From Betaproteobacteria bacterium (lineage in GTDB: Bacteria; Pseudomonadota; Gammaproteobacteria; Burkholderiales; SG8-41): 48,234 bases of DNA. Position numbers and translations under genes: made by a program. Below the pieces are notes generated by a model. It had not been told where the DNA came from. It made no database searches and saw nothing but the letters and a program-made list of their open reading frames with translations. Position 1 is the first letter of the stretch. Each line of letters begins with the position of its first letter. Below are positions 2,170 to 38,719 of the stretch, piece after piece. Location: positions 1-48,234 of the forward strand of contig JANPOH010000542.1 of the NCBI GenBank assembly GCA_031427895.1, written 5' to 3'.

Positions 2170-2185
2170 TAAGTATTTGATTTTA
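2170..2185 (+). repeat. AT-rich dispersed repeat copy (core TAAGTATTTGTTTTTA)
   Basis: TAAGTATTTGATTTTA, 1 mismatch to the core. Followed by the T-rich tail TTGACTTTTTTATAATTTAATTTCCCGGA. Lies in the divergent spacer, 42 nt upstream of the Bug gene ATG at 2228. Confidence 0.85.
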
Positions 2186-2227
2186 TTGACTTTTTTATAA
2201 TTTAATTTCCCGGATACATTCTACCCA

Positions 2228-3199
2228 ATGAAAACCGCCTTCAGTGCTTCGATCAAAACGTTGTGCAGCGTCGCGTGGCTGCTGGTGATGGGAAACGCGC
2301 TCGCGCAAACCTTCCCTGCCAAAGCCATACGCATCATCGTGCCGGCGGCGCCGGGTGGCGGCACGGATATTCTGTCGCGGCTGTTGAGCGCGAAGCTGAC
2401 TGAAAACCTCGGGCAAACCATGATTATCGAAAATCGCGCCGGGGCTTCCACCAATATCGGCACGGAGTTGGTGGCGCGCGCCGCACCGGATGGTTACACC
2501 GTGTTGATGGCCACCACGCCGCACGCGATCAATCCGAGCCTGTTTGCCAAGCTCAACTTCGATCCGGTGCGTGATTTCACCATGATCAGCCAATTGGCGT
2601 TGACGCAGAACGTGCTGCTCACGCATCCGTCACTGCCGGTAAGTAACGTGAAAGAATTTGTAGCGCTGGCGAAAACGCGCCCAGGCCAACTGACGGCCGG
2701 CACCTCCGGCGGCACATCGGCATTTCTCGCGGTTGAAATGTTGCGCTCGGCGGCGAAGATTGACGTGCTCAATATCCCCTACAAAGGCGCGGGGCTGGCG
2801 TTGAACGACATTATCGCGGGCCATTTGCAGTTTCAGGTGAACACCACGCTCGCCACGATACAGTTTATCCAGTCAGGCAAACTGCGCGCCATCGCCACCT
2901 GCGGCGCGAAACGCACCACCACGTTGCCGCAAGTACCGACCGTCGCCGAAACTATTCCGGGTTTTGAATCCAGCGGCTGGTATGCGCTGATGGGGCCGGC
3001 CGGCATGCCGCGCGACGTGGTGCTTAAACTGCACGCGGCGTTCAGCAAATCGATACAGTCACCCGATATCGCGCGGCGCCTGACAGAGCAAGGCGTTGAC
3101 ATCGTTGCGGGTTCGCCCGATGAGCTGACCCGCCTGATGCCGCTGGAAATCAATAAATGGGCGGCGGCGGTAAAAGCGTCGGGCGCGAAAGGTAACTAA
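2228..3199 (+). CDS. Bug/TctC-family tripartite tricarboxylate transporter substrate-binding protein
   Basis: ORF track. Signal peptide followed by FPAKAIRIIVPAAPGGGTDILSRLLSAKL...GYTVLMATTP...NIPYKGAGLALNDIIAGHLQF...GWYALMGPAGMP...EINKWAAAVKASGAK, the hallmark Bug/TctC pattern. Confidence 0.9.
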   Translation: MKTAFSASIKTLCSVAWLLVMGNALAQTFPAKAIRIIVPAAPGGGTDILSRLLSAKLTENLGQTMIIENRAGASTNIGTELVARAAPDGYTVLMATTPHAINPSLFAKLNFDPVRDFTMISQLALTQNVLLTHPSLPVSNVKEFVALAKTRPGQLTAGTSGGTSAFLAVEMLRSAAKIDVLNIPYKGAGLALNDIIAGHLQFQVNTTLATIQFIQSGKLRAIATCGAKRTTTLPQVPTVAETIPGFESSGWYALMGPAGMPRDVVLKLHAAFSKSIQSPDIARRLTEQGVDIVAGSPDELTRLMPLEINKWAAAVKASGAKGN

Positions 3200-3205
3200 C
3201 GGGAA

Positions 3206-3697
3206 CTAAAACGTCTGGTATTTCGCCGTCGCCAACAGGCGTGTTATCTCTGTTTTCAGAGCTGCCACATCGTCGTCGGTGAGCGGCTGCAACGGTGCCT
3301 GCGCCTTGAACGCCTGCGCGGTGAGCGGCAACGCAAGATACTGCCCATAGGGTTGCAACGTCGCGCTGCGCGCGCGGCCATACAAATGCACATGCAACTC
3401 ATGGCGCCAGTTGCCGTTATCCTGATAGTTGATTCTGCCGATGTCGATGCCGCGTTGGGTAAGCACGGTTTTCATCGCCGCGCCCGCCACCATGGTCAGC
3501 TTCATCAACTCCACGGCGCGTTCACGATCAAGCTGCGTGCGATCTTCCACCGCCACCCTGGGATTGATAATCAAATGCCCGCCGTCGCCGCGCGATACAT
3601 GCGGATGCTCCGGTGTAAGAATGGTGAAATGTTGCGATTCAACGATAAGCATATTATTTGCGCCGTTGCGGCATTGCGTATCAATCGGATTAATCAT
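3206..3697 (-). CDS. HIT-like domain protein
   Basis: ORF track, ATG start 3 nt after the BNR gene stop. ...MLIVESQHFTILTPEHPHVSRGDGGHLIINPR...GRINYQDNGNWRHELHVHLYGR resembles HIT-family hydrolases, but the histidine triad is imperfect (H-E-L-H-V-H). Confidence 0.55.
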   Translation of the reverse strand: MINPIDTQCRNGANNMLIVESQHFTILTPEHPHVSRGDGGHLIINPRVAVEDRTQLDRERAVELMKLTMVAGAAMKTVLTQRGIDIGRINYQDNGNWRHELHVHLYGRARSATLQPYGQYLALPLTAQAFKAQAPLQPLTDDDVAALKTEITRLLATAKYQTF

Positions 3698-3700
3698 GCG

Positions 3701-4798
3701 CTAACTGCACGCCACCGCGTAAACATCATGCACGCCGGGCGGCAGGCGATATTCACTCCACGAGGTGCCCGCGTCCTGCGTGCCGAACACCTGCCCCGCG
3801 CGCGTCACGCTGTAGACCTGCTTCGCGTCGCGCGGATGCACGCACACCGACATCAGCGTGGATTCGGCCTTGATGCCGTGATCGATGCGTTTCCAGGTCT
3901 GCGCCAAATCATCGCTGCGATACAGCGAGCCGTCCTTGCTGAACGCCGCCGGCGACAGGCACGCATACATCACGCGCGCATCGTGCGGCGACACAATCAC
4001 GTCGCGGCAGTAGGTGAGTGGTGAAAAGCGCCCGATCTCGATGTCGCGCCACGTCGCGCCGCGATCATCGCTGCGAAACACGCCCATGCGGATGGCGAGA
4101 AACGAGGTATCCGGCGCGCACGCGCTGATCGCCAGCGCGTGCGAATCAAGCATGCCTTCGCAATGGCCGCAGTGGCGGCCGCCGACATTGCTTTGATAAC
4201 GCGGCTGCTCGGCGAATTTCATCAGCGACGCCGATTTATCCGTCCACGTCTCGCCGCCGTCGGCGCTGTGGATCACGCCGCTGACTTCGAGCGCGGCGTA
4301 GACGTCGTCGGGCCGGTTTGGATCGGCGGTGATGCGTATGGTGCGCGTATCAAACCCTTCGCGCTCGCAATGCGCGGGCGATTTTGCGTTCGGCAGGCGG
4401 TGCCAGTTGTCGCCGCCATCAAGGCTGCGATACAGCGCCACCGGCGCGGTGCCCGCGTACAAAATGTTGTGCCGCGTGGGGTGTATCGAGAGGGTCCAGA
4501 TCGCCGCGTCGCGATCCGGAAAGCCGAGTTTCTCCCAATGGTCGCCGCCGTCGATGCTGCGGTACGGGCCATCCTGCGTGCCGATGTAAATCACCTCCGG
4601 GTTGGTCGGGTGAACCACCATCGCGCGCACGTCGGCGTTTTCCGGCAAGCCGTTGGTGAGGGATTCCCATTCGTTACCACTGCCACCGCCCGCCTCCTGC
4701 GGATAGCGCCGGTATAAACCGCCAATCACTTTGGCGCCCGTTCTCAACACCGAATACCCCGCGCCCGCGAACAGGCGCGTCTTGTTTCCGGTTGCCAT
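3701..4798 (-). CDS. BNR/Asp-box repeat beta-propeller protein
   Basis: ORF track. Six S/T-x-D-x-G-x-(T/H)-W Asp-boxes: SIDGGDHW, SLDGGDNW, SADGGETW, SDDRGATW, SDDLAQTW, TQDAGTSW. Confidence 0.8.
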   Translation of the reverse strand: MATGNKTRLFAGAGYSVLRTGAKVIGGLYRRYPQEAGGGSGNEWESLTNGLPENADVRAMVVHPTNPEVIYIGTQDGPYRSIDGGDHWEKLGFPDRDAAIWTLSIHPTRHNILYAGTAPVALYRSLDGGDNWHRLPNAKSPAHCEREGFDTRTIRITADPNRPDDVYAALEVSGVIHSADGGETWTDKSASLMKFAEQPRYQSNVGGRHCGHCEGMLDSHALAISACAPDTSFLAIRMGVFRSDDRGATWRDIEIGRFSPLTYCRDVIVSPHDARVMYACLSPAAFSKDGSLYRSDDLAQTWKRIDHGIKAESTLMSVCVHPRDAKQVYSVTRAGQVFGTQDAGTSWSEYRLPPGVHDVYAVACS

Positions 4799-4818
4799 AT
4801 ATACGCCCCAATGTTTCG

Positions 4819-4834
4819 TAAGTATTTGTTTTTA
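4819..4834 (+). repeat. AT-rich dispersed repeat copy (core TAAGTATTTGTTTTTA)
   Basis: Exact 16-mer, followed by CTGTGTTTTTTAAAATGCC. Fills the 45-nt spacer between the Bug gene stop (4844) and the BNR gene start (4798), antisense to both. Confidence 0.9.
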
Positions 4835-4843
4835 CTGTGTTTT

Positions 4844-5842
4844 TTAAAATGCCTTAATGCCTTGCCGCTGTATCAACGGCTGCCATTTCTTTTTTTCAGC
4901 GACGAGATATGCCGTCAATTGCGCCGGCTCGCCACCCGCGATATTAATGCCGGATTGCGACACTGCTTTGCGGTACTCAGGTTCCTGAAAGATGGCGTTG
5001 ATGTCGCGATTGACCGCAGCAATGATTTGCGCGGGCGTGCCCGCCGCCACGAACACGCCATGCGGCACGCCGGAATAAAAATTCGCGATGCCGCCTTCGT
5101 CGAACGTCGGCACCTCCGGCAACGCCGCGGCGCGCGACTTGCTCGCAATGCCGAGACCGCGCGCGCGCCCGCCGCGTATGTGACCCAGTGCCGATGCGCC
5201 GTTGTCGAACAGCATCTGAATTTCGTCGCCCAGCATTGCCACGATCGCGGGGGCCGCGCCCTTGTAGGGCACATGTACGATGTCGATGCCGACCACGCTC
5301 TTGAATAACTCCCCCGCCAGATGCAGCGATGTGCCCTGCCCGCCGGAACCGAAATTCACCTTGCCCGGCTGCGCTTTGGCGTGCGCGATGAGTTCGGATA
5401 ACTTCGTCGCGCGAAACGCCGCGCTGACCAGCAGAATGTGCGGCGTATCGCTCACCAGTATCACCGGCGCGAAATCGCGCTCCGCGTTAAACGGCAGCGA
5501 CGCGTAGAGCAGCGGGTTGGTCACCAATATCGGCAGCGAGGCGAAAAACAGCGTGTAACCGTCACGCTCGCTGTTGGCCACCGCCTGCGCCGCCGAATTG
5601 CCCGCGCCGCCCGCGATGTTATGCACGATAACCGGCTGTTTCCAGCGGTTATTCAGGCGCTCCGCCAGCCGCCGCGCGGCGAGGTCGGCGCCGCCTCCCG
5701 CGGCAAAAGGCGCGATGAGGCGCACCGGGCGCACGGGATAGTCCTGCGCGCTTGAAATCGCGGCATAACCGAGCACCGCCCCCGCCAGCAAACTTGTCGC
5801 TATGCGTTTTCGTTTTCGTTGATGCGCGCCTGCTGACAACAT
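4844..5842 (-). CDS. Bug/TctC-family substrate-binding protein
   Basis: ORF track 4844..5869 (TTG). ATG at 5842 is preferred because AGAGGAG lies about 8 nt upstream. ...YPVRPVRLIAPFAAGGGADLAARRLAERL...GYTLFFASLP...HVPYKGAAPAIVAMLGDEIQM...AEKKKWQPLIQRQGIKAF. Confidence 0.9.
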   Translation of the reverse strand: MLSAGAHQRKRKRIATSLLAGAVLGYAAISSAQDYPVRPVRLIAPFAAGGGADLAARRLAERLNNRWKQPVIVHNIAGGAGNSAAQAVANSERDGYTLFFASLPILVTNPLLYASLPFNAERDFAPVILVSDTPHILLVSAAFRATKLSELIAHAKAQPGKVNFGSGGQGTSLHLAGELFKSVVGIDIVHVPYKGAAPAIVAMLGDEIQMLFDNGASALGHIRGGRARGLGIASKSRAAALPEVPTFDEGGIANFYSGVPHGVFVAAGTPAQIIAAVNRDINAIFQEPEYRKAVSQSGINIAGGEPAQLTAYLVAEKKKWQPLIQRQGIKAF

Positions 5843-5944
5843 CGGCTGTGCTCCTCTGGATTTTCTCAACCCGCAGGGTAAGCAGCCAGCGCCACCCGGT
5901 CAAGCCGCAGCCGAGAGCGCGGCGCATCGAAGCCTCGGCGTACA

Positions 5945-6667: not shown

Positions 6668-6699
6668 CATAGACGGGAAACCCGCTTACCGGAGATCCC

Positions 6700-8229: not shown

Positions 8230-8283
8230 GCCTTCTGTGTTTCCCTGCACCCAAAAATATCTGCCCAGCCCGCCGCCGCGGGG

Positions 8284-8961: not shown

Positions 8962-9638
8962 CAGTCGAAGTCCAGCATGCCCGCCGACACCAGCCGGTTC
9001 TCGACCCGCTGCACGCTACGGAAGGATTTGACGATCTGTTCAGCCCTGGTGACCACCTCGGGCTTTTCCGGCGTGCCCTCGAGCATCACCACGCTGTCGC
9101 GCACGCTGACGCGGATGTTGATGCCGCGCACCAGAAGTTTGCCGTCTACACTTTCGATCAGCGCGCCGGGTGAAAATTCCTGCCGCAGGGCCTCGGCGAT
9201 TTGCCGCAGCAGCACCGGATCGGCAACCGGCGCGCTGCTGGTTTGAGGCTTCGTCACTGCGGCGACCGGCGCGCCGTGCACCACGGCCGGTGCCGTCTTG
9301 ATGACCAGACTGTCTTGATAACCGGTGCGCGCGAGGATGTAATCGACGGCGGCTTTCACGTCGCCGTCGGTCAGGTTGGCGAAGCCGCCCCTGGGGCCCA
9401 TCGCGGAATTAGGCACGCCCTTGATGCCGCCTTCGTGCATGGCGGTGCGGCCCCGCTGCCAGCGCGGCTCCCAATCCGCGCGATGCGTCACACGCGGCGC
9501 ATTGCCCGCACCGCTGTCGTGACACACATTGCAGGTGGCTTTGTAGACGGCTTCGCCGGACGCGGCATGGCCATTCACTGCCGCCCCCATCACCAATGCA
9601 AGAATAACGTAACTATTTGTTTTTATTATGTTTTTCAT
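8961..9638 (-). CDS. cytochrome c5-family domain fused to a C-terminal BON domain (secreted)
   Basis: ORF track. Signal peptide, haem site CNVCH, Met ligand region NSAMGPRGG, and DGDVKAAVDYIL as in cytochrome c5. The C-terminal 80 aa (VRGINIRVSVRDSVVMLEGTPEKPEVVTRAEQIVKSFRSVQRVENRLV) has the BON pattern. ATGA overlap with the upstream hydrolase gene. Confidence 0.8.
   Translation of the reverse strand: MKNIIKTNSYVILALVMGAAVNGHAASGEAVYKATCNVCHDSGAGNAPRVTHRADWEPRWQRGRTAMHEGGIKGVPNSAMGPRGGFANLTDGDVKAAVDYILARTGYQDSLVIKTAPAVVHGAPVAAVTKPQTSSAPVADPVLLRQIAEALRQEFSPGALIESVDGKLLVRGINIRVSVRDSVVMLEGTPEKPEVVTRAEQIVKSFRSVQRVENRLVSAGMLDFD
9610..9625 (+). repeat. AT-rich dispersed repeat copy (core TAAGTATTTGTTTTTA)
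   Basis: TAACTATTTGTTTTTA, 1 mismatch, followed by TTATGTTTTTCATTTGCC. Lies antisense inside the first 11 codons (MKNIIKTNSYV) of the cytochrome gene, next to the stop of the hydrolase gene. Confidence 0.85.
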
Positions 9639-10429: not shown

Positions 10430-10437
10430 GGTCTGTC

Positions 10438-10587: not shown

Positions 10588-10676
10588 GGCGATGGTGAGT
10601 GAGGTTTGGTGGTGGTCAGGGTGATTATAATGGCAACATTGTTTTTTCCCGGAACGCACAAATCACAAAAGCACAA

Positions 10677-11154: not shown

Positions 11155-11189
11155 ACGTCGGAACTGATTTATCATCGCGCACGGATATC

Positions 11190-11229
11190 CATTCACTTCC
11201 ATTCACCCTCATTCACTTTCATTCACCTA
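11190..11229. repeat. four tandem 10-bp units CATTCACNNN
   Basis: CATTCACTTC CATTCACCCT CATTCACTTT CATTCACCTA, exactly 10-bp phased. Ends 10 nt before the FKBP gene ATG at 11239. Confidence 0.85.
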
Positions 11230-11727: not shown

Positions 11728-11778
11728 GCCGGCAGGCGTACGTTACTCGGCCGGCAGGCGTACGCTACTCGGCCAGCC
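11728..11778. repeat. 22-bp tandem direct repeat (2 copies plus a 7-bp partial)
   Basis: GCCGGCAGGCGTACGTTACTCG (11728-11749) and GCCGGCAGGCGTACGCTACTCG (11750-11771), 21/22 identical, then GCCAGCC. Begins immediately after the FKBP stop codon. Confidence 0.85.
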
Positions 11779-13712: not shown

Positions 13713-13834
13713 TCTGCTTTCATTCCCACGGAGTTGACCAGTTTGCCGTAGCGCGCCAGTGCGGATTTAATCATCTCGCCCAAGTGTTGCGGCGTGCCCG
13801 CTTCCGGCTCGTACCCTTGCACCGCCAGCACGGG
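13709..13834 (-). pseudogene. C-terminal remnant of a Bug/TctC-family gene
   Basis: Below the ORF-track length cut-off. Manual translation gives ...VLAVQGYEPEAGTPQHLGEMIKSALARYGKLVNSVGMKAE*, the canonical TctC C-terminus (G.EP...TP..F...IK.E.A.W.K.V...G.K.E). No N-terminal 280 aa and no start codon. Its TGA overlaps the ATG of the acyl-CoA synthetase gene. Confidence 0.6.
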
Positions 13835-13908
13835 ATAGGCCGAAACCGCCTGCTGCGCGTGGCTCGCGGCGGCGAATCTGCCACTGGCGACAGAACAAAA
13901 ATTTCCTT

Positions 13909-13924
13909 TAAAAACAAATGCTTA
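13909..13924 (-). repeat. AT-rich dispersed repeat copy (core TAAGTATTTGTTTTTA)
   Basis: Minus strand reads TAAGCATTTGTTTTTA, 1 mismatch, followed by AAGGAAATTTTTGTTCTG. Lies between the pirin stop (13934) and the Bug remnant. Confidence 0.85.
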
Positions 13925-13933
13925 TGTAACATA

Positions 13934-15865: not shown

Positions 15866-16024
15866 ATGCGTCTGGCGGTGAGCTACGGCGCGCATGTATT
15901 CATACCCGCCGCCTTCGGCGCGCTGGGCGCGGCCGTTGGCCTGCAACCGATATTCTGGCTCTGCGCGACGGCGCTAATGAGCGGCTCGGCGATGAACGCG
16001 AAGCAGGCCGGGAAAATAATATAA
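15866..16024 (+). pseudogene. C-terminal fragment of an MFS transporter paralog
   Basis: Below the ORF-track cut-off. Manual translation gives MRLAVSYGAHVFIPAAFGALGAAVGLQPIFWLCATALMSGSAMNAKQAGKII*. It aligns by eye with the C-terminus of the convergent MFS pseudogene (VAHLFIPLFFGSLGTAFGFAPVFVSNAAMLAAGGVL). Confidence 0.4.
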
Positions 16025-16037
16025 GTATCTGTTTTTA
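16022..16037 (+). repeat. AT-rich dispersed repeat copy (core TAAGTATTTGTTTTTA)
   Basis: TAAGTATCTGTTTTTA, 1 mismatch, followed by TTGGCTATTTTATGGATTATTTTTGATCCGG. Sits exactly between the two convergent MFS fragments and covers both stop codons. Confidence 0.85.
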
Positions 16038-16046
16038 TTGGCTATT

Positions 16047-16701
16047 TTATGGATTATTTTTGATCCGGTTCTTGCGCTGCAACAACACCCCGCCCGCCGC
16101 CAGCATCGCCGCGTTCGACACAAACACCGGCGCGAAGCCGAACGCCGTGCCGAGGCTGCCGAAAAACAACGGGATAAACAGGTGCGCGACGTTGTTGACC
16201 ATCACCCTGATCCCCGCGGCTTCGGAGGTTCTGCCCGCAGGCGCCAGGACGTAGATCAGTGACATCGACATCGGCTGGCCGCTGCCCACGCCGATGCCCA
16301 GAATGAACGCGGCCAGCGCCAGCAGCCACGGGTTGGCAAAAAACGGAAACAGCACGAAGGAGAACGCGGCGATGAAGGTGGCCAGCGCGAAAGTGGCAAG
16401 CACCGCGCCGATCACCGAGGCGGACAATCCCAGCGAGTGCCCGTAGATCGGAAAATAAAACTGGAACAAATCCCACGCCGGCGGTGCCTGCCATCATCGG
16501 CCCGCGCGGCCCCAGCCGGTCGGCGAGGCGGCCCGCATAGATGGCAAAGAGCAGCGGGCAGATCGCGTACAGCGCCATCAGCACGCCGATGGAAAACTGG
16601 CTCGCCCCCAGCTCCAGCGCATACAGCGACATCACCATGCGGCTGCCGCTAAAGCACGCATGATTCAGCAGGCACAGCAGCGCGATCAGGTAGATGGGCA
16701 T
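16047..16701 (-). pseudogene. MFS transporter remnant (internal deletion of several TM helices plus frame change)
   Basis: The N-terminal helices sit in the frame of ORF 16054..16791, from ATG 16701 (MPIYLIALLCLLNHACFSGSRMVMSLYALELGASQFSIGVLMALYAICPLLFAIYAGRLADRLGPRGPMMAG). The C-terminal half sits in the frame of ORF 16047..16469 (FQFYFPIYGHSLGLSASVIGAVL...). The junction is near 16470-16490. Total length is about 217 codons versus about 400 for an intact MFS protein. Confidence 0.7.
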
Positions 16702-16721
16702 GAATTCCGCGCGGCGGCGCG

Positions 16722-17705
16722 TTAGTTGCTGATCGATGCGCCGATCGAAAGGTAGTGTATGGAAAACAATTGTTCCGCATCCGTCCAGCAATGCGCGGCG
16801 GTAAACCCGGCGTCGCGCGCAAGCTGCTGGAATTCTTCAACCGAATACTTGCAGGAATTTTCGGTATGTATGGTCTCGCCCGCACTGAAGTGAAAGGCCT
16901 GTCCCGCCACGCTGACCTGCTGCTCGCGCAGGCTGCGTAGATGCATTTCGATGCGTCCTTCGCTTTCGTCGTAGAACGCATGATGCTCGAAGGCGCCCAC
17001 GCCGAAGTTGCCGTTCAGCTCGCGGTTGATGCGCGTCAGCAGATTCAGATTGAATGCGGCGGTCACGCCTTGCGCGTCGTTGTAGGCCGCATGCAGGCGC
17101 GCGGGGTCTTTTTTCAGATCAACGCCCACCAGCATGGCGCCGCCCGGCCCGGCGACAGCATGCACGTGGCGCAGAAAGGCCAGCGCCTCCGGCCGGGTGA
17201 AATTGCCGATGGTTGAACCAGGAAAATAAATCACGCGCCGCAGCGGCTGTACGCCCTCGATCGTCGGCAACGGCAACGGGCGTGCGTAGTCGGCGCACAC
17301 CGCCGCCACGCGCACGCCCGGATAGGCCGCCGCCAGTTCCCCCGCGCAATGCCGCAAGGCGGTGCGCGAGATGTCGATGGCCATGTACGCCACCGGCGCC
17401 AGCGCCTCGATCAGCACGCGCGTTTTGCGCCCGGAACCGGCGCCGTATTCGATCAGCAGACATTGCGGCCCCAGCACGCGCGCCATCTCGGCGGCGCCGG
17501 CCTGCATCATCGCCAGTTCGGTGCGGGTGGGGTAGTACTCGGGCAGCGCGCAGATGGCTTCGAATAATTCGCTGCCGCGCGCATCGTAAAAATATTTGGG
17601 CGGCAGCCATTTGCGCGGCTGGGCCAGCCCGCTCAACACGTCGCCGCGCAGATTTTCAGTATCGGGATGAAGATCGTGAAACAGGAAGTCGGTGCGCGAG
17701 GGCAT
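16722..17705 (-). CDS. egtD: L-histidine N-alpha-methyltransferase (EgtD family)
   Basis: ORF track. KWLPPKYFYDARGSELFEAICALPEYYPTRTE, EYGAGSGRKTR, YFPGSTIGNF, AYNDAQGVTAAFNLNLL and IHTENSCKYS match the EgtD/DUF2260 methyltransferase pattern. Confidence 0.8.
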   Translation of the reverse strand: MPSRTDFLFHDLHPDTENLRGDVLSGLAQPRKWLPPKYFYDARGSELFEAICALPEYYPTRTELAMMQAGAAEMARVLGPQCLLIEYGAGSGRKTRVLIEALAPVAYMAIDISRTALRHCAGELAAAYPGVRVAAVCADYARPLPLPTIEGVQPLRRVIYFPGSTIGNFTRPEALAFLRHVHAVAGPGGAMLVGVDLKKDPARLHAAYNDAQGVTAAFNLNLLTRINRELNGNFGVGAFEHHAFYDESEGRIEMHLRSLREQQVSVAGQAFHFSAGETIHTENSCKYSVEEFQQLARDAGFTAAHCWTDAEQLFSIHYLSIGASISN

Positions 17706-22776: not shown

Positions 22777-22827
22777 GGTCGCCGCCCGCGGTTGCGGTTG
22801 AGAAGGGTCATATTATTATATTCTCAA

Positions 22828-22843
22828 TAAAAACAAATAGTTA
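22828..22843 (-). repeat. AT-rich dispersed repeat copy (core TAAGTATTTGTTTTTA)
   Basis: Minus strand reads TAACTATTTGTTTTTA, 1 mismatch, followed by TTGAGAATATAATAATATGACCC. Overlaps the EEP gene stop codon (22841-22843) and lies 51 nt upstream of the ABC gene ATG, in sense orientation. Confidence 0.85.
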
Positions 22844-23620
22844 CAATAAACTTAAGTCACACGTCAAGGCACGATGATCGGAACTGTGGCGCCATCCCCG
22901 GCCGCGCTGCACGCTGGCCCCGCGCACGCGAAAGCCTCGGACATAAATGCGGTCCAGCCGCAGCAAAGGCAAGAGCGCCGGGAAACTGAGCGCGGGCCTG
23001 CCGCCATCCGCCTCGAACACTTCCTGCATGTTCAGCGGATGCGCGAACTCGTGGGCGGCGCGATGCCGCCAGTGCCAGTCGTTAAAATCACCCGCCACGA
23101 TCAGCGGCGCATTCGCGGGCACCATGCGTTCGACCCGTTGGCGCAGATGCTCCAGTTGACGACCGCGCCCGCGCGCGGTCAACGCCAGATGCACGCACAC
23201 GCAGTGCAGCGGCTCGGGCCAGCCCGGCACGCCGATTTCGGCGTGCAACAAGCCGCGGCTTTCAAAACGATGGGAGGATACGTCCTGATTTTCCCAACGC
23301 AATATTGCAAAGCGGGAGAGTATCGCGTTGCCGTGGTCGCCGCCGTCATACACCGCGTTGCGTCCGTAGGCGTGATCCTGCCACACCTCGTCGGCAAGAA
23401 ACTCGTGCTGCGCCTGGCTCGGCCAGTTGCCGTGCCGCAGGGCGTGGGCGTCATGCCGGCCCGACACTTCATGCAAAAAAACAATATCCGCTTGCAGCGC
23501 GCGCTACAGCTCGCGCAGCGCATGGATCACCAGGCGGCGGTTGAAAATCGACAGCCCCTTGTGAATGTTGAAGGTCGCGACGCGCAGTTGTCCGGCGGGC
23601 GCCGGGTTGTTGCCGTGCAT
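22841..23620 (-). pseudogene. endonuclease/exonuclease/phosphatase (EEP) family gene interrupted by an in-frame TAG
   Basis: ORF track 22841..23476 covers only the distal part (HEVSGRH...AGDFNDW...SDHRALTCDLSLL). The same frame continues upstream to ATG 23620 (MHGNNPAPAGQLRVATFNIHKGLSIFNRRLVIHALREL*RALQADIVFLHEV). That stretch is the conserved EEP N-terminus (TFN.H.G...ADIV.LQEV) and contains TAG at 23506-23504. Confidence 0.75.
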
Positions 23621-24780: not shown

Positions 24781-24932
24781 GATGCCCTTTCGCTTTTCTC
24801 GCAAAGCAAAATGTCGGGGGAGCCGAGAAAGATATCACATTAAGACTCGTTTTCCAGCGCACAATTCCCATATCTGGAATCACTACATAATATGCGAACG
24901 CACATGCGGTTTACCGCAAGAGCGGTGAAATA

Positions 24933-24965
24933 GGGGGCTTAAAGGGGGCTTAAAGGTGACTTAAC
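24933..24965. repeat. 11-bp tandem repeat, 3 units
   Basis: GGGGGCTTAAA GGGGGCTTAAA GGTGACTTAAC, seen directly. Lies 23 nt downstream of the nudB stop, in the nudB-nadA spacer. Confidence 0.8.
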
Positions 24966-25442: not shown

Positions 25443-25883
25443 CTAACGCACTTGCGATGTCAGCGGCAATGTCAGCGCAGGCAAATCCTTGGCGTCGTCC
25501 ACCAGCACGAAAAAGGGCGTGTCCCGACCCTTCCAGAACTCAGCCGCTTCGGCCAGCACGTCGAGCGCGGTTTGATAATCGCTGGCGGCGGCAGCAGCAA
25601 ATTTTTCGGCGCCCGCGATGTGCAGCACATAACCTTGGCCGTCCAACCAATTGAAATCACGCAGGCAATCCGCCAGCGCATCCCAGTTGCCACCGAAGTA
25701 CGACGGCAGTTTTAACTGTTTCGCGCACACCGCGAGAAATTGTTTTTTGTTTGCCGCAGCCTGTAGCGGCAGGTCCAGCCAAAGCAGCCCTGCCGTGCCG
25801 GCCTGCTTGCGAAACGCATCCACGGACGCCGGGGCGCGGTAGATGCCGGAACGTTTGGGGGTGATACCCGGGGCCGCGCTCAT
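25443..25883 (-). CDS. barstar-family ribonuclease inhibitor
   Basis: ORF track. LKLPSYFGGNWDALADCLRDFNWL...YVLHIAGAE is the barstar pattern (..FG.N.DAL.DCL.D). ATGA overlap with the upstream RNase gene. Confidence 0.8.
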   Translation of the reverse strand: MSAAPGITPKRSGIYRAPASVDAFRKQAGTAGLLWLDLPLQAAANKKQFLAVCAKQLKLPSYFGGNWDALADCLRDFNWLDGQGYVLHIAGAEKFAAAAASDYQTALDVLAEAAEFWKGRDTPFFVLVDDAKDLPALTLPLTSQVR

Positions 25884-26281
25884 GGCACTATCCGTTTGAA
25901 TGTTTTGTAGTGATCTTCGCTATAGTATTTTTCGCCGTCCTTGCCGGTGACGATGCGCCGCGCGCCGCGATGTTTGACGCCCGGCGTCTTAACGGTGAAC
26001 TCGCGGTAGTAGCCGCGATCCTTAAGCGGCAAAATTTTCTCGAAATTGCTGAACACGATACCGTCGCGATCATGCGGATACGGCCCGCCTTTTTCGATCA
26101 GCTTGAGCGTCTCGCGGGCTTCGGTCGGCAAATCCTTGACCGCGATATCGGCCAGTGCGCGCTGTATGCGCTGCGGCTGCGTCGCCCCCTCGCGCTGCGC
26201 GGACGCAGGCACCGGCGACAACAGCAGCGCCGCAGCCCAAATAACACCTAAGTATTTGATAATGTTCAATATTTTTTTCAC
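25880..26281 (-). CDS. secreted guanyl-specific ribonuclease (barnase/RNase Sa family)
   Basis: ORF track (GTG start). Signal peptide ending PASA. TLKLIEKGGPYPHDRDGIVFSNFEKILPLKDRGYYREFTVKTPGVKHRGARRIVTG...YYSEDHYKTFKRI matches the microbial RNase fold motifs (GGPFPY.RDG..F.N....LP....GYYRE.TV.TPG...RG.RRIV.....YYT.DHY..F..I). Confidence 0.8.
   Translation of the reverse strand: MKKILNIIKYLGVIWAAALLLSPVPASAQREGATQPQRIQRALADIAVKDLPTEARETLKLIEKGGPYPHDRDGIVFSNFEKILPLKDRGYYREFTVKTPGVKHRGARRIVTGKDGEKYYSEDHYKTFKRIVP
26249..26264 (+). repeat. AT-rich dispersed repeat, degenerate copy
   Basis: TAAGTATTTGATAATG: first 10 nt exact, 4 mismatches after, followed by TTCAATATTTTTTTCAC. Lies antisense within the first 12 codons (MKKILNIIKYLG) of the RNase gene. 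Confidence 0.65.
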
Positions 26282-29018: not shown

Positions 29019-29396
29019 TCAATTCGTGCTGGTGGTGGACGGCGCGGGCGTGCTGGTTGCGGCGGGTGTGCTGGCAGCCGCACTGGGTGCGCTCGGCGCA
29101 CTGGCCTCGGCGGTGCTTTTTTCAGTCTTGGCCGATTCGGACGAAGTAGAGGAAATCTTGGTATCTACTTGTTTTGAATCCGTTTTTTTCAGAGCGGCCG
29201 CGGTGTGGCTGCCGCCGGTTTTGAAATCGGTCGCGTACCAGCCGCCGCCCTTCAACTGAAATCCGGCGGCGGTGACCATTTTGCTGAAGGTCGCCTTTTT
29301 GCACTCAGGGCAATCGGTCAGCAGCGCATCACTCATGCGCTGAATATATTCCTTTTGAAAACCACAACTGTCGCAACGATATTCGTAAATCGGCAT
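29019..29396 (-). CDS. FmdB-family zinc-ribbon protein with a low-complexity Ser/Thr/Ala/Pro tail
   Basis: ORF track. MPIYEYRCDSCGFQKEYIQRMSDALLTDCPECKK has the CxxC...CxxC FmdB signature. Confidence 0.85.
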   Translation of the reverse strand: MPIYEYRCDSCGFQKEYIQRMSDALLTDCPECKKATFSKMVTAAGFQLKGGGWYATDFKTGGSHTAAALKKTDSKQVDTKISSTSSESAKTEKSTAEASAPSAPSAAASTPAATSTPAPSTTSTN

Positions 29397-30140: not shown

Positions 30141-31376
30141 TTATCGTACCGGCTCGCCGTCCGTCTGGGAAATGGTCGTTTTGCCACGCGGCAACGGCAC
30201 CTGCATGCCCATCGTGAGTATAAGCCAGATCGCCAGCAGGATTGCGCCCGGCACTACGATGCCGGTCAAGCCCCAATGGCTGTATAAGAAGCCGCCCGCC
30301 GCCGCGCCCGCGAAGGCGCCGAGAAACTGCACGCTGCTGTAGACGCCTATCGCCGCGCCCTTGAGCTCGCGCGGCGCAATGCGCGACACCAGCGACGGCA
30401 GCATCGCTTCGAGCACATTGAACGGGGTAAAAAATATCAATAAAAACAAGGTGATTTCCCATACCCCGCCAATCAGCCACGGCATCGCCAACTGCACCAG
30501 CAACAATAAAGCCACCGATGCCACGAACCAGCCTTTCAATTTGCGCGGGTCGGCATGCGATCCCATCACGGCAGGCGCCATCAGCACAAACGAGATCAAC
30601 ATCACCGGGAGGTAGATTTTCCAGTGCTGGTTAAGCGGCATGCCGGCGTCGCGCAAGGCAAACGGCACGGCAATAAACAGCGCCATCAGCACCGCATGCA
30701 GCACGAAGATGCCCCAGTTCAGACGCGCGAGTTGCGGGTCGGCCAGCACGATCTTGAAATCCGCCAGTAAGGTGGAGCTCCGCTGCGAGATTGCAGGGAA
30801 CGCCGGCTGCGGCGGAACAATACGCCATATCACGCCCATGGCGCCGATGGCGAGTACGCCGGTCAGCGCAAAGATGCCGGGCACGCCGATCAGTTGATTA
30901 AGCCACGGCGCCGCCGCCAGCGATAGCGCGAAGACCAGACCAATGGTGGAGCCGATCATCGCCATCGATTTGGTGCGATGTTCTTCGCGCGTGAGGTCGG
31001 AGGCCAACGCCATCACGGCGGCGGAAATCGCGCCCGCGCCTTGCAGCACGCGGCCCAGAATCACCACGTAAATGTTCGGCGCGGCAGCAGCCACAAAACT
31101 GCCCACCGCGAACAAAATCAGACCGAAATACATCACCGGCTTGCGTCCGATGCGATCCGACCACCAGCCAAACGGAATTTGCAGAATTGCCTGCGTCAGC
31201 CCGTAAGCGCCGATGGCGATACCGGCCAACACGAGGCTGCCGCCGGGCAGGGTTTCGGCGTAGATGGCGAATACCGGCAGGATGACGAACATGCCGAATA
31301 ATCGCAGGCCAAATACGCTGGCGAGCGCAAGACTTGCCCGCAGTTCCAGCGCGCTCATGCGATTAGACAATGACAT
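30141..31376 (-). CDS. MFS transporter
   Basis: ORF track, 411 aa with about 12 hydrophobic helices. [11 protein letters not shown] is the MFS loop 2-3 motif. Sits between ssb and uvrA. Confidence 0.85.
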
Positions 31377-31433
31377 GGAAAAACAGCTAGGGAATTGAAT
31401 CGAAAGGCGGGTATATTAGCAGGTTTACATTTG

Positions 31434-34364: not shown

Positions 34365-35635
34365 TGTCGCCGCGTGATCTGTTGCTGGGCAGCTTTCAGG
34401 CCGCGCTGTCGGCGGCCGATCCGCTGAAAATCGTCGGCGCACATTTGCCCAATCCGCCGAAGGGCCGCACCTTGGTGGTGGGCGCTGGCAAAGCGGCAGC
34501 GTCCATGGCGCTGGCCGTCGAGCAACGCTGGCCCGCGGATGCGCCACTCGATGGACTGGTCATCACGCGCTACCAGCACGGGCTGCTCACCAATCGCATC
34601 ATCGTGATCGAAGCAGGACATCCGGTGCCAGATGAGGCGGGCGAAAAAGCGGCGCGGGAAATCCTGCGGCGGGTAAAGGCGCTCACCGCACAGGATTTGC
34701 TACTGGTGCTGCTGTCGGGCGGCGGCTCCAGCCTGCTCACCGTGCCCGCCGATGGCATCACCATCGATGATATAAAGCATCTTACAAAACAACTACTTAT
34801 GTCAGGAGCACCGATCCAGGATATGAATGTGGTGCGTAAGCATCTGTCCGCGATTCAGGGCGGCAGGTTGGCGGCCGCTTGCCGCGCACCAGTAACAGCA
34901 TTGATTATTTCGGATGTCACGGGCGACGATCCAACACACATTGCGTCGGGTCCCTGTGCGCCTGACACCAGCACGTTTCAGGACGCACTTGATGTCATCA
35001 AACGCTTTCGCCTCGCGGCGCCCGCAGCCATTACCGCCCACCTCGCGCGCGGCGCGGCAGCGGAGATTCCTGAAACAGCCAAGCCGGGTGAACGGCTTTT
35101 TTCGCGCGTTGAAAACCGGGTGATTGCAACGGCGCATGCCTCGTTGCAGGCAGCGGCGGCGTTTTTTCAAACACACGGCATTCAGGCCGCGATTCTGGGC
35201 GACTCGGTCACTGGAGAAGCGCGTGAAACAGCCAAAGTCTACGGCGCACTGGCTCGCGAAGTGCGGAGGCACGGCGCACCGTGGCGCGCGCCGGTCGCAT
35301 TGATCTCCGGCGGAGAATGCACAGTCACGGTAAAAGGCCATGGGCGCGGCGGACGCTGCGCTGAGTTTCTGCTGTCGCTTGCGGTGGATATGCAAGGTGC
35401 CGAAAGCATCCACGCGCTGGCGTGCGACACCGACGGCATTGACGGCTCTGAAGACAACGCGGGCGCGGTACTCGCACCCGACACTTTGCAGCGCGCGGCG
35501 CAAAAGCAGATCAACGCACAAGCCATGCTCAATGACAACGACGGCTATGGTTTTTTTAATGCGCTCGGCGATCTGGTCATCACCGGCCCCACGCGCACCA
35601 ACGTCAACGATTACCGCGTGTTGCTCGTGCTGTAG
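34361..35635 (+). CDS. glycerate 2-kinase / hydroxypyruvate reductase-like (DUF4147 + MOFRL)
   Basis: ORF track (GTG 34361 or ATG 34364, overlapping the uvrA TGA). [65 protein letters not shown] and [10 protein letters not shown] fit the family. Confidence 0.85.
34784..34799 (-). repeat. possible degenerate AT-rich repeat copy inside a CDS
   Basis: Minus strand reads TAAGTAGTTGTTTTGT, 3 mismatches. It lies in a locally AT-rich patch that encodes the conserved [12 protein letters not shown] of glycerate kinase, so it may be coincidental. Confidence 0.3.
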
Positions 35636-35697
35636 GCGAAAGCCGTTCCATCCGTGGCGCATCAGCGCATCAGCGCCTCAATAGCCCGACTAGCGCG

Positions 35698-35732
35698 AAA
35701 AAAAGCCGGCTGGTACAAACCGCCGGCTTTTT
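35698..35732. terminator. bidirectional intrinsic terminator between glycerate kinase and rplQ
   Basis: AAAAAAAGCCGGC-TGGTACAAACC-GCCGGCTTTTT: GC stem flanked by an A-tract and a T-tract, so it reads as hairpin plus U-run on both strands. Lies between convergent genes ending at 35635 and 35753. Confidence 0.7.
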
Positions 35733-35752
35733 ACTTTTGCGGCAGCGGTTGT

Positions 35753-36163
35753 CTACACTGCGGCTTCTGCCTTCGCGCCCTGTTCAACCAGAACCGCACT
35801 GGCTTCCGGACGATCCACCAACTCGATAAAGGCCATTGGCGCGTTATCGCCTTTGCGGAATCCGAATTTCAGAATACGCAGATAACCCCCATTGCGCTTG
35901 GCGTAACGCGGGCCAATCTCCGCGAACAGCTTGGTCACATTATCGCGATCACGCAGGCGATTAAACGCCAACCGACGATTGGCAAGCGATGGCGATTTTC
36001 CGAGCGTGATGATGGGTTCGACAACACGACGTAATTCCTTGGCCTTGGGCAACGTTGTTTTGATTGCCTCGTGCTTGAGCAAAGAGTTCGCCATGTTACG
36101 CAGCATCGCCAAACGATGGCTGCTGGTGCGATTGAGCTTTCGTAATCCGTGACCGTGACGCAT
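35753..36163 (-). CDS. rplQ: 50S ribosomal protein L17
   Basis: ORF track. [50 protein letters not shown]...; last gene of the alpha operon. Confidence 0.95.
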
Positions 36164-36165
36164 GA

Positions 36166-36181
36166 TAATTCCTTGTTTTTC
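36166..36181 (+). repeat. possible degenerate AT-rich repeat copy
   Basis: TAATTCCTTGTTTTTC, 12/16 match to the core, in the 30-nt rpoA-rplQ spacer, antisense to the operon. Confidence 0.3.
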
Positions 36182-36193
36182 TAGCGAGCCGAC

Positions 36194-37174
36194 TTAGAGC
36201 TTTTCCAGCCCGGCGGGCGGCCAGTTCTCCAGCTTCATGCCTAAAGTAAGGCCACGCGAAGCCAGAACTTCCTTGATTTCATTAAGCGACTTGCGGCCCA
36301 GATTGGGCGTCTTGAGCAGCTCGGTCTCCGAGCGCTGAATCAGATCGCCGATGTAATAGATGTTTTCGGCCTTCAGGCAATTCGCCGAGCGCACGGTAAG
36401 CTCCAGATCGTCCACGGGACGCAGCAACACCGGATCAACCTGGGTGGCGCGCTTCTCTTCGATCAGCGCCGGCGTGCCGGTGAGATCGGCGAATACCGAC
36501 AACTGCTCCACCATGATGCGTGCCGCGTACCGCACGGCTTCTTCAGGATCAATCGCGCCGTTGGTCTCGATATCCATGATGAGTTTGTCGAGATCGGTGC
36601 GCTGTTCAACACGCGCCGATTCCACCGAGTAGGTCACACGCCGCACTGGACTGAACGACGCATCCAGCAGTATGTTGCCTACGGTGCGCCCCTCTTCTTC
36701 CAGCGCCTTGCGGCTGGTCGCGGCAATATAACCGCGGCCTTTTTCGACTTTGATCTGCAATTCGATCTTGCCGCCCGCCGCGAGGCGCGCAATAACGTGA
36801 TCGGGGTTGATGATTTCCACATCGTGCATCGGCTCGATGTCGCCGGCGGTCACCAAACCTTCGCCGGACTTCTTGAGAACCAGCGTCGCCTCGTCGCGGT
36901 TGTGCAACTTAAGCACCACGCCTTTGAGGTTGAGCAAAATATCGACAACATCTTCCTGCACGCCATCAAGGGTTGAGTATTCGTGCAATACGCCGGAGAT
37001 GCTGACTTCGGTTGCCGCATAACCCGGCATGGACGATAGCAGCGTGCGCCGCAGTGCATTGCCCAAGGTATGGCCGTAGCCGCGCTCGAACGGCTCCATG
37101 GTGAGCCGTGCGTGATGCGTCGAAAGGTTCTGAACGTCGATGATACGAGGCCTCAGAAGTGCAGTGCTGGACAT
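36194..37174 (-). CDS. rpoA: DNA-directed RNA polymerase subunit alpha
   Basis: ORF track. ...[32 protein letters not shown]...[48 protein letters not shown]. Confidence 0.95.
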
Positions 37175-37188
37175 AATAATGGCGCCCC

Positions 37189-37233
37189 TTCGGTAACTTC
37201 GGTAAATTCGGTAAATTCGCTAATGTCGCTAAT
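37189..37233. repeat. 9-bp tandem repeat, 5 units, in the rpsD-rpoA spacer
   Basis: Plus strand reads TTCGGTAAC TTCGGTAAA TTCGGTAAA TTCGCTAAT GTCGCTAAT, seen directly. It fills most of the 65-nt intergenic spacer. Confidence 0.85.
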
Positions 37234-37239
37234 GCGTGA

Positions 37240-37866
37240 TTACTTGGAGTAAAGCTCGACCACGAGCGATTCATTGATACTGGACGGTAGCTCCGAACGC
37301 TGTGGACGCGCCTTGAACGTGCCTTTCAACGCTTTGCCGTCGACTTCCAGCCACTCCGCGCGTCCACGCGACTCAGCCGCCTCGCTGGCCGCCTTGATAC
37401 GCAACTGCGCCTTGGATGCCTCGGCTACTTCAATCACGTCGCCGGGTTTGCACTGAAAGGACGGAATATTCACACGCTTGCCGTTCACGAGTATGGAGTT
37501 GTGACGCACGATCTGGCGCGCTTCGGTGCGCGAGGCGCCGAATCCCATGCGGAACGTCACGGTATCCAGGCGGCACTCAAGCAATTGCAGCAGCGCCTCG
37601 CCGGTCACGCCTTTGCTCGCCGATGCTTTCGCATAGAACAGCCGGAACTGGCGTTCGAGCATGCCGTAAATACGGCGGATTTTCTGCTTTTCGCGCAGTT
37701 GCACGCCATAGCCTGACAAGCGAGCCTGCTTCTGGCCGTGTTGTCCGGGCGGGTAATTGCGGCGCTCAATAGCGCACTTGTCGGTGAAACACTTTTCGCC
37801 CTTGAGGAACAACTTCTCGCCCTCACGGCGGCACTGCCTGCACTTCGCATCGAGATTCCTTGCCAC
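37240..37866 (-). CDS. rpsD: 30S ribosomal protein S4
   Basis: ORF track. [36 protein letters not shown]...[16 protein letters not shown]... Confidence 0.95.
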
Positions 37867-37878
37867 GGTGGGATCTCC

Positions 37879-38268
37879 TTAGACTCGTCTCTTTTTCGGA
37901 GGACGGCAGCCGTTATGCGGCACCGGCGTCACATCCGAAATACTGGTTATTTTAAAACCCACGGCATTCAGCGCCCGCACCGCGGATTCGCGACCCGGGC
38001 CGGGGCCCTTGATACGTACTTCCAAATTTTTTACGCCGCATTCCACCGCGAGCTTGCCGCACTGCTCTGCGGCGATCTGCGCGGCAAACGGCGTAGATTT
38101 GCGCGATCCCTTGAAGCCGTTGCTGCCGGACGTCGCCCACGCCAGCGCGTTGCCTTGCCGGTCGGTAATCGTCACGATCGTATTGTTGAATGACGCGTGT
38201 ACGTGGGCAATGCCCTCGGCGACATTCTTCTTGACCTTCTTGCGCACTCGCGTGCTTGCTTTTGCCAT
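37879..38268 (-). CDS. rpsK: 30S ribosomal protein S11
   Basis: ORF track. ...[46 protein letters not shown]...[18 protein letters not shown]. Confidence 0.95.
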
Positions 38269-38307
38269 AGTGAATCGCTACCTCTGATAACGTAGACCGT
38301 TCCCGAC

Positions 38308-38685
38308 TTAAACCGTAGTACCCTTTTGCAACTTGACCGCCGCCTTGCGCGGCCCCTTGCGCGTGCGTGCATTGGTGCGTGTGCGCTGTCCGCGAACCGG
38401 CAAGCCGGCACGATGCCGCTTGCCGCGCCAAGTGCCCAGATCCATCAAGCGCTTGATGTTCATGGACACCTCACGGCGCAGGTCGCCTTCGGTCGCGACC
38501 TTCGCCACCTGCTCGCGCAGCTTGTCCATTTCCGTATCAGACAAGTCTTTCATCTTGCGCGTGGTCTCAATGCCCGCCGCCGTGCAAATCTTGCGCGCGC
38601 GGCTGCGACCGACACCGTAAATCGCGGTTAACGCGATTTCAGCATGCTGATGATTCGGAATATTAACGCCACCAATACGGGCCAT
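38308..38685 (-). CDS. rpsM: 30S ribosomal protein S13
   Basis: ORF track. [34 protein letters not shown]...RRLMDLG-type motif [35 protein letters not shown]. Confidence 0.95.
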
Positions 38686-38703
38686 GCGACGACTCCACTA
38701 ACC

Positions 38704-38719
38704 TAAGTATTTGTTTTTA
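38704..38719 (+). repeat. AT-rich dispersed repeat copy (core TAAGTATTTGTTTTTA)
   Basis: Exact 16-mer, followed by AACAAGAAAACCC. Occupies the 49-nt rpmJ-rpsM spacer, antisense to the operon. Confidence 0.9.

Follow-up and report, generated by a model that had tools for sequence, protein, structure and literature searches.

What is the role of a short AT-rich sequence that recurs, often letter for letter, between and within functionally unrelated genes of a GC-rich genome? The question is raised by a complete 48,234-bp metagenomic contig of about 60% GC (the window, meaning the whole stretch that was analyzed) from an uncultured member of the Burkholderiales (Betaproteobacteria), through which copies of the 16-letter word TAAGTATTTGTTTTTA are scattered. 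The word is the core of an element of about 38 bp that is shared with related genomes. The element is a double-stranded, DNA-level signal word, independent of the direction of transcription and replication and kept by selection or drive, and it was not copied in as a mobile unit. Our best guess, held tentatively, is that it may be an analogue of the uptake signal sequences (USS) and DNA uptake sequences (DUS).

An over-represented core and the shape of the element

At no more than one mismatch, the word occurs seven times in the window (2170+, 4819+, 9610+, 13909-, 16022+, 22828-, and 38704+), exactly at the coordinates and on the strands given in an earlier note on this DNA, and raising the limit to three mismatches adds a single core copy (34784-). 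The copies in the window are mostly near-perfect: four are exact if G or C is allowed at the fourth base, three have one mismatch, and there are few intermediates. Dinucleotide shuffles of the window give 0.00 expected copies at up to one mismatch and 0.07 at up to three, in line with the estimate of the earlier note that chance would supply far fewer than one. First-order Markov models trained on the spacers of the window only, or only on its 17 AT-rich islands (element copies included), produced no copy at up to one mismatch in 1000 simulations, compared with 6 observed. The enrichment therefore stands against a composition-matched model of AT-rich spacers, and spacer composition cannot account for the count.

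The window was also scanned with a position matrix built solely from other genomes and with an nhmmer profile likewise independent of the window. The matrix finds 11 window copies above 12 bits, whereas 0.31 are expected under the null. The copies are as follows (handles beginning with L denote loci from other genomes).

2161..2198, plus strand: full element, core 2170-2185 (TAAGTATTTGATTTTA), TTGA-type tail; 53.1 bits, nhmmer E=7.7e-5; in a divergent spacer upstream of a TctC gene.
4810..4847, plus strand: full element, core 4819-4834 exact; 48.1 bits, nhmmer E=9.2e-5; takes up most of a 45-nt spacer between tandem minus-strand genes (TctC stop, BNR-repeat protein start).
9601..9638, plus strand: full element, core 9610-9625; nhmmer support; orthologous copy in L132 and L133; its reverse complement encodes the n-region of a cytochrome c signal peptide (MKNIIKTNSY...).
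13896..13933, minus strand: full element, core 13909-13924 (TAAGCATTTGTTTTTA), AA-type tail; nhmmer support; directly 3' of the pirin stop codon.
16013..16050, plus strand: full element, core 16022-16037; 51.6 bits, nhmmer E=4.8e-5; abuts the 3' end of a major facilitator superfamily (MFS) gene.
22815..22852, minus strand: full element, core 22828-22843; 53.4 bits, nhmmer support; separates an exo/endonuclease/phosphatase-family gene (stop) from an ABC transporter gene (start).
26240..26277, plus strand: degenerate copy, TAAGTATTTGATAATG followed by a T-rich tail; 30.9 bits; at the same place in L256 and L257; overlaps the first codons of a barnase-like ribonuclease gene (signal peptide).
29162..29177, plus strand: weak candidate of uncertain membership, TATCTACTTGTTTTGA followed by a T tail; 23.6 bits; in the low-complexity Lys/Ser/Thr tail of a zinc-ribbon protein.
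30431..30449, minus strand: right half and tail, TTGTTTTTATTGATATTTT, an exact match of 19 nt (0.00 expected); in an MFS transporter gene.
34766..34810, minus strand: coding-embedded copy, core 34784-34799 with 3 mismatches; 15.4 bits, with codon evidence.
38695..38732, plus strand: element with exact core, 38704-38719, and a partly palindromic AA-type tail (TTGTTTTTAAACAAG); nhmmer support; within the 49-nt rpmJ-rpsM spacer.

Among the degenerate copies proposed earlier, those at 26249 and 34784 are supported, whereas those at 36166, 43099, and 12118 are not supported as members because they score below 8 bits, the site at 36166 being the conserved ribosome-binding region of rplQ. The matrix scan adds the copy at 30431-30449 (-) and the weak one at 29162 (+), both absent from the earlier list.

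The anatomy of the element was drawn from an alignment of 87 copies. It is an AT island with sharp borders (-9 to +29), in which a head with a weak AT bias precedes the 16-bp core TAAsTATTTGTTTTTA and a tail closing with a run of T follows it. This tail has the pattern (TTGA or AAnr)wtwTTTT, with helically spaced T-tracts, and comes in two types, TTGAwtTTTT in 62% of copies and AAnrwtwTTT in 32%. Conservation is base-specific at all 16 core positions, including G9. Columns outside -9 to +29 carry no information in the 87 copies and the flanks are random; therefore there is no larger repeat body, and CCGG does not belong to the family. The tail had been described as 20-30 nt of T-rich sequence often ending in CCGG(A), but the conserved part is about 13 nt, reaching to +29, and the CCGG(A) ending lies beyond it.

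The element was said to lack hairpin symmetry and to be neither a repetitive extragenic palindromic (REP) sequence nor a terminator, and folding agrees. Five of six folded sequences do no better than shuffles (z +0.1 to +1.5), and the sixth, one strand of the consensus, reaches z=-3.5 yet forms merely a 5-bp AT stem of -1.8 kcal/mol; minimum free energies range from -1.8 to -4.1 kcal/mol, and neither strand folds convincingly. No Rfam family was found in the window at the gathering threshold, and no tRNA in a tRNA scan. Neither terminal inverted repeats, whose absence was claimed before, nor a target duplication are evident on reading the aligned copies. By the same kind of reading, the outermost core bases form a weak dyad (TAA-N10-TTA), and the reverse complement of the element holds (AAN)n triplets. 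AA-type tails (GTTTTTAAAC...) may be partial inverted half-sites, and one locus (L045, 3116-3143) carries a palindromic variant, TAAGTATTTGTTTTAAAACAATTATTTA, that matches the motif on both strands.

In full-text literature searches, neither the 16-mer nor its reverse complement nor sub-words matched anything but unrelated primers, and a keyword search on uptake sequences and intergenic repeats in Betaproteobacteria and Burkholderiales found no description of the element. The searchable literature thus holds no account of this sequence, or of such an element in Betaproteobacteria outside the Neisseriaceae.

Placement between and within genes

With genes predicted by a codon-usage model, 80 of the 87 copies are intergenic, which bears out the placement at gene boundaries claimed from the window. 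Many copies abut or overlap stop or start codons, and in convergent spacers that carry the element the median length is 30 nt, so that the element is essentially the whole spacer. The type of spacer makes little difference, as the element is borne by 21% of spacers between tandem genes, 19% of those between convergent genes, and 16% of those between divergent genes. In tandem gene pairs, 30 copies are co-directed with the genes and 25 opposed to them, while 12 copies lie in convergent and 8 in divergent spacers. Counts of head or tail toward gene starts or ends are likewise close to one another (34, 36, 41, and 39). Orientation splits 39:39 with respect to gene direction and again 39:39 with respect to local GC skew (34:30 where |GC skew| >0.03), in keeping with the occurrence on both strands noted before, and the variable distance to start codons noted there extends to all 87 copies, among which no distance is fixed.

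These counts bear on the idea that the element acts in transcription, as a promoter or UP element, as the operator of a global regulator, or in bounding operons, whether by insulation or by protein-dependent termination. An AT-rich island at the edges of genes in otherwise GC-rich DNA is what such a signal could look like, one copy overlaps a weak sigma-70-like match (16044-16016), and another occupies the rpmJ-rpsM spacer, which in E. coli holds the spc terminator and the alpha-operon promoter. Against this stand the random orientation to flanking genes, the use of convergent spacers as often as divergent ones, the lack of a fixed distance to start codons, and the presence of copies in mid-gene. 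A consensus promoter scan of the first 20 kb found that one of five copies overlaps a match, and such matches are rarer than in shuffles. Together with a search for -35 and -10 boxes by eye in both orientations, the scan yielded that one weak overlap, and a promoter identity was ruled out because copies lie in convergent spacers and inside genes. The flanking genes are functionally unrelated. A role in transcription is thus quite unlikely in our estimate, and the global regulator proposed earlier is unlikely given that all spacer types and both orientations are used equally and that copies lie inside genes.

An RNA-level element, such as an unstructured A/U-rich translation leader, a binding stretch for Hfq or S1, or an RNase E processing site in polycistronic mRNAs, is the least probable of the accounts considered here and in our view extremely unlikely. 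It would suit the many copies found 8-30 nt ahead of a start codon between tandem genes, the (AAN)n triplets of the reverse complement, and the unstructured sequence. However, either strand is transcribed with equal frequency, 16% of copies lie in convergent spacers with no downstream gene, A/U-richness would not require particular bases to be conserved at 16 positions, G9 among them, and no Rfam family matches.

Three other identities were tried and rejected. Copies touch several genes of the TctC ("Bug") receptor family, yet the frequency of TctC neighbors (15/145) equals the background (40/419). A leader peptide or small open reading frame (ORF) was considered, as K-T-N-T/S-Y can be read from the reverse complement and K-Y-L-F-L from the forward strand; the copies do not agree in frame, stop, or start, and the element is translated solely where the signal peptide of a real gene overlaps it. 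Likeness to the E. coli Ter site (TAAGTATGTTGT...) is confined to the first 7 bases, with the essential GTTGTAAC core missing, and was judged coincidental.

The copies written into coding sequence show at what level the word is maintained. The copy at 34784 lies mid-gene in a glycerate kinase (MOFRL), at codons ~134-148, where 15 consecutive codons end in A or T in a gene whose overall GC content at third codon positions is 0.68. In the window and in L257, the codons for the peptide DDIK(H/N)(L/I)TKQLL(M/T)SGA spell the reverse complement of core and tail; in L125 and L256, the same peptide is encoded with the usual GC-ending codons, and there is no indel. Among 14,235 predicted codons in the window, A/T-ending codons reach 11 or more out of 13 in two stretches only, and both are element copies, namely the glycerate kinase copy and the start of the cytochrome c gene (9601..9638). 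In the MFS transporter gene, TTGTTTTTATTGATATTTT at 30431-30449 encodes LFLLIFF within a transmembrane helix using rare TTA and ATA codons, again with no indel, and similarly T-rich codons occupy this spot in L125, L256, and L257. Signal peptides are encoded by the element in either orientation, as in the cytochrome c already mentioned and in a TctC protein (MKYKHLFLNIIF...).

Resampling of synonymous codons in 184 genes, with the proteins held fixed, gives 0.43 expected core matches (up to 3 mismatches) against 8 observed, and 0.2 expected matches to the right half against 5 observed. The word is therefore selected or driven at the DNA level; it can arise by point substitution, and insertion is not required. 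Short DNA signals can thus locally override codon usage in GC-rich genomes.

The window has several further features. On the minus strand at 16047-16791, overlapping ORFs (16047-16469 and 16054-16791), both assigned to MFS_1, indicate a frameshifted MFS transporter gene or an assembly error. Genes for a barnase-like ribonuclease and a barstar inhibitor (25443-26281, minus strand) adjoin aspS. Short tandem repeats, unrelated to the element, are found in spacers at 37189-37223, 11188-11227, 11728-11774, and 24932-24964, with units of TTCGGTAAA (3.9 copies, between rpsD and rpoA), a CATTCAC-type unit of 10/20 bp, a 22-bp unit (2.1 copies, between convergent genes), and AGGGGGCTTAA (3 copies).

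Conservation, spread and spacing

Syntenic DNA from five related lineages (L125, L131-L134, L256, and L257) was obtained by protein look-ups and has 74-82% nucleotide identity to the window in the conserved genes compared. Several junctions carry the element in more than one lineage: rpmJ-rpsM in the window, L125, and L256 (degenerate in L122 and L257); pirin-TctC in the window, L131, L132, and L133 (absent in L134, where pirin overlaps the next gene); hydrolase-cytochrome c in the window, L132, and L133; and the start of the barnase-like gene in the window, L256, and L257. The mean identity of the core between lineages is 0.85, compared with 0.62 at near-synonymous third positions of adjacent genes; therefore, the copies are under constraint and are not decaying scars. 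Turnover also occurs, as the convergent spacer between the L17 and glycerate kinase genes has a copy in two lineages (L125 and L256) and lacks one in the window and L257, although the filled and empty versions have no clean boundaries. Orthologous alignment thus reveals presence/absence polymorphism, which a plain conserved promoter does not explain.

Two of these junctions have further features. The L17/glycerate kinase copy of L125 and L256 adjoins a conserved hairpin terminator; in the window, a GC-rich hairpin with A and T runs at ~35690-35735 (rplQ-glycerate kinase) is a bidirectional intrinsic terminator conserved in L125. The pirin copy of the window lies in a 221-bp, mostly GC-rich spacer (13713-13933) between pirin and an acyl-CoA synthetase gene, where L131-L133 have a TctC gene; in L134 it is the acyl-CoA synthetase gene that pirin overlaps. 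From this arrangement, the window apparently lost the TctC gene after pirin and retained the element that formerly preceded it.

The orthologous copies also weigh on a mobile origin, that is, a miniature non-autonomous element or its scar, moved by a transposase that is encoded at another place. Near-identical copies scattered over gene junctions, presence/absence differences such as that of the L17/glycerate kinase spacer, and spacers that are little more than the element would fit. Nonetheless, the aligned copies have neither terminal inverted repeats nor a target duplication nor a conserved body past ~38 bp, the coding-embedded copies preserve the protein and involve no indel, orthologous copies have changed less than synonymous sites, which would not be expected of a decaying scar, and the same core is found across genomes of 55 to 69% GC. 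In L013 and L067, the genes enclosed by inverted copies encode enoyl-CoA hydratase, TctC, a PHP-domain protein, and a Sua5-like protein; they are ordinary metabolic genes with no transposases among them, and the element was accordingly rejected as the end of an insertion sequence. The mobile element suggested before is contradicted by these observations and now very unlikely, and the suggested insertion hot spot finds no support, as no insertion sequence or transposase lies beside or between copies.

Scanning one genome per GTDB species for the word gave at least 118 stretches, about half of them chance matches in AT-rich taxa. The remaining matches are on contigs of 55-69% GC, including about 30 metagenome-assembled genomes (MAGs) of Betaproteobacteria/Burkholderiales/Nitrosomonadales among the matches listed, and the word is often present on several contigs of one MAG. 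The five related lineages, which were fetched through proteins rather than by the motif, also carry the word, with 21 matrix matches in 162 kb of such loci. The density is one copy per 4-8 kb, which extrapolates to a few hundred per genome. An outgroup labeled Rhodocyclales (L135, 21.6 kb) has no strong copy at up to 3 mismatches and one weak 21-bit matrix match. Among 120 viral-contig matches, 2 are GC-rich and the other 118 are chance matches in AT-rich phages, and a plasmid BLAST search with the 40-nt consensus gave weak chance matches only.

Outside the clade, the exact 16-mer occurs singly in GC-rich genomes of Mesorhizobium (L062 and L106) and Zoogloea (L069); the two Mesorhizobium copies lack the typical tail, and the Zoogloea copy has an AA-type start. 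These occurrences may be due to chance, to an unrelated site that is conserved, or to transferred DNA. Ten MAG records titled 'Bordetella parapertussis' carry the element (L013, L026, L031, L032, L044, L046, L081, L086, L104, and L127; CAMB*/CAMD*). They have ~60% GC and are environmental Burkholderiales, one of them syntenic with the window, and the label looks wrong.

In the window, copies are spaced ~3.7 kb apart and more evenly than a random choice of gene junctions (coefficient of variation 0.40; P=0.003 for internal intervals, P=0.02-0.03 with end gaps). The evenness is suggestive only, because it rests on a single window and on a threshold picked after inspection of the data. No strong copy (0-1 mismatch) lies in the 12 kb between 26.2 and 38.7 kb, which is where the coding-embedded copies fall. 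The S10-spc-alpha ribosomal gene cluster occupies the minus strand from ~36 to 48 kb, and the last 9.5 kb of the window (ribosomal protein operons) has no copies; the rest consists of ordinary metabolic and transport genes, including several TctC receptors.

Maintenance at the DNA level, inside genes as well, recalls Chi of E. coli. With this and a spacing of ~4 kb in the window, the element could be a signal for recombination, repair, or packaging, either a Chi-like hotspot of the RecBCD/AddAB type or the packaging start of a gene-transfer-agent-like system. We consider this unlikely. Chi and the FtsK-orienting polar sequences (KOPS) are strongly co-oriented with replication, whereas the element is oriented evenly, also in windows with clear skew, and known Chi sites have 5-8 bp, as opposed to 16 bp and a tail. 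For packaging, none of the loci showed gene-transfer-agent or phage genes, and GC-rich viral contigs are essentially free of the word. Polar recombination, mobile, transcription, and RNA readings are each contradicted by at least one direct test.

Candidate functions and comparison with known systems

Two accounts of a DNA-level word then have to be weighed. Of the four hypotheses that the earlier note listed without ranking, the mobile element, the insertion hot spot, and the global regulator have lost ground, a nucleoid-associated protein is among the candidates of the competing account below, and the uptake signal agrees with more of the tested features than any other. Only Pasteurellaceae and Neisseriaceae, both host-associated, are known for sequence-specific DNA uptake (10.1101/2025.10.24.684340), and uptake sequences have been described as restricted to families and embedded in coding reading frames (10.1101/2025.10.24.684340; PMC2817400). 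To our knowledge, the uptake sequences of these two families are the sole described class that unites family-wide sharing, codon-level embedding, and absence of strand polarity, and an uptake analogue is ranked first for this reason. By this analogy, a surface receptor of the competence or type IV pilus machinery would bind the 16-bp core, and the T-tracts on its flanks would help the DNA to bend as it enters. Fragments from relatives that bear the word would be preferentially taken up and recombined. Mutations that approach the word would therefore spread at any site able to tolerate them, as in short spacers, near stops and starts, in the codons of signal peptides and transmembrane helices, and at codon positions where the change is synonymous or conservative.

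Several points weigh against an uptake signal. Uptake bias, a receptor, host competence, and the role of the T-tracts are all proposed by analogy for a clade that is uncultured. The element forms no convincing hairpin, unlike known uptake sequences, about half of which lie in terminator hairpins, often as inverted pairs (10.1101/2025.10.24.684340). Without a systematic test, no close inverted pairs of full copies were seen, the one palindromic case being the single-site variant of L045. There are no clear genome-specific dialects, as TATATG and TATTTG variants occur within the same MAGs. The density is 4-8 times below that of the best-known USS/DUS genomes. Known uptake cores are G+C-containing words in AT-moderate genomes, and we know of no precedent for an AT-only word in a genome of 60% GC. 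The test of strand bias rests on 8-kb windows and has limited power, so a weak replication bias is still compatible with the even orientation. Finally, selection for the binding site of an intracellular protein accounts for all observations equally or nearly as well. The uptake reading is held no more firmly than tentatively because the function is inferred, the density is lower, the terminator-hairpin habit is missing, and an AT-only word lacks precedent.

The competing account is an array of sites, one every few kb, for an abundant and highly sequence-specific DNA-binding protein, with sites kept at junctions and written into genes where no spacer exists. The binder might have an architectural or nucleoid-associated role, anchor loops or domains, or be a factor for which the element is a topoisomerase or condensin loading site; taken as a whole, we regard such an array as possible, if rather doubtful. 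The sharp island of ~38 bp with T-tracts has the size of a protein footprint, and the lack of polarity toward genes or GC skew, the even spacing, and the conservation of orthologous positions above the synonymous level would all be expected of it, as would the filling of the 26.2-38.7 kb stretch by coding-embedded copies and the weak dyad at the outer core bases. On the other hand, set against published consensus sequences, the element departs from that of IHF (WATCAANNNNTTR) at TTR and is a poor match to the motifs of Fis, Lrp, and H-NS. The information content of the near-perfect copies is far above what ~500 binding sites per genome need, sites lie in a ribosomal protein operon and in genes where a tight binder would obstruct RNA polymerase, and the binder is hypothetical, with no candidate protein.

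Under the uptake reading, the existence of sequence-specific uptake in environmental bacteria is a standing question that the word addresses, since a clade-conserved, non-polar, codon-embedded word is the genomic footprint expected of an uptake system and the 16-mer gives a testable handle. It is conceivable, though doubtful, that the word marks a third, independently evolved uptake-signal system, the first outside the Pasteurellaceae and Neisseriaceae, the first in free-living bacteria of lakes, soil, and groundwater, and the first with an AT-only word in a GC-rich genome. If so, natural transformation would be sequence-selective within a widespread uncultured clade of Burkholderiales. Should an intracellular protein prove to bind the word instead, the word would be a new and unusually specific chromosome-organizing site, ~4 kb apart in the window and one per 4-8 kb overall. 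Under either reading, it is a strong marker for binning and recognizing DNA of the clade.

Among known systems, REP sequences and bacterial interspersed mosaic elements (BIMEs) of Enterobacteria and Pseudomonas resemble the element in having hundreds of copies of ~35 bp, mostly in spacers and especially at the 3' ends of genes, and in E. coli they are bound by the architectural proteins gyrase and IHF. However, REPs are imperfect palindromes that form hairpins and are mobilized by RAYT transposases, whereas the element has no foldable dyad and also lies inside genes by substitution. Chi and KOPS are likewise short words kept genome-wide, genes included, by DNA-level selection, but they have 8 bp and a strong skew between replication strands, in contrast to 16 bp with a tail and a ratio of 39:39. 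The IHF-binding sites of repetitive IHF-binding palindromic (RIP) elements and BIME-1 of E. coli, and of Correia elements of Neisseria, share an asymmetric AT-rich site of ~35 bp and an A/T tract beside TATCAA (TTGATA of the tail, read on the other strand). The reverse complement of the element consensus reads TATCAA-TAAA-AAC, so the TTR that is obligatory in the IHF consensus is missing, its place being taken by AAC. Moreover, about a third of copies have no TTGA tail (AA-type tails lack ATCAA), and there is no surrounding repeat body.

The closest likeness is to the uptake sequences. The USS of Pasteurellaceae has a 9-bp core and two AT-rich tracts, and the DUS of Neisseriaceae has 10-12 bp. 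Like them, the element is a specific asymmetric word, hugely over-represented, clade-shared, present on both strands with no polarity, conserved at orthologous positions, and codon-embedded in genes, and its core followed by less conserved AT/T tracts matches the Haemophilus USS, in which the core is followed by AT tracts. It differs in being AT-only in a 60% GC genome, in its 16-bp core (against 9-12 bp), in being 4-8 times sparser and outside terminator hairpins and inverted pairs, in its uncultured host clade with uptake inferred, and in a sequence unrelated to any USS or DUS dialect. What is new would be a genome-wide DNA signal word of the USS/DUS type, with a function proposed by analogy to these two systems.

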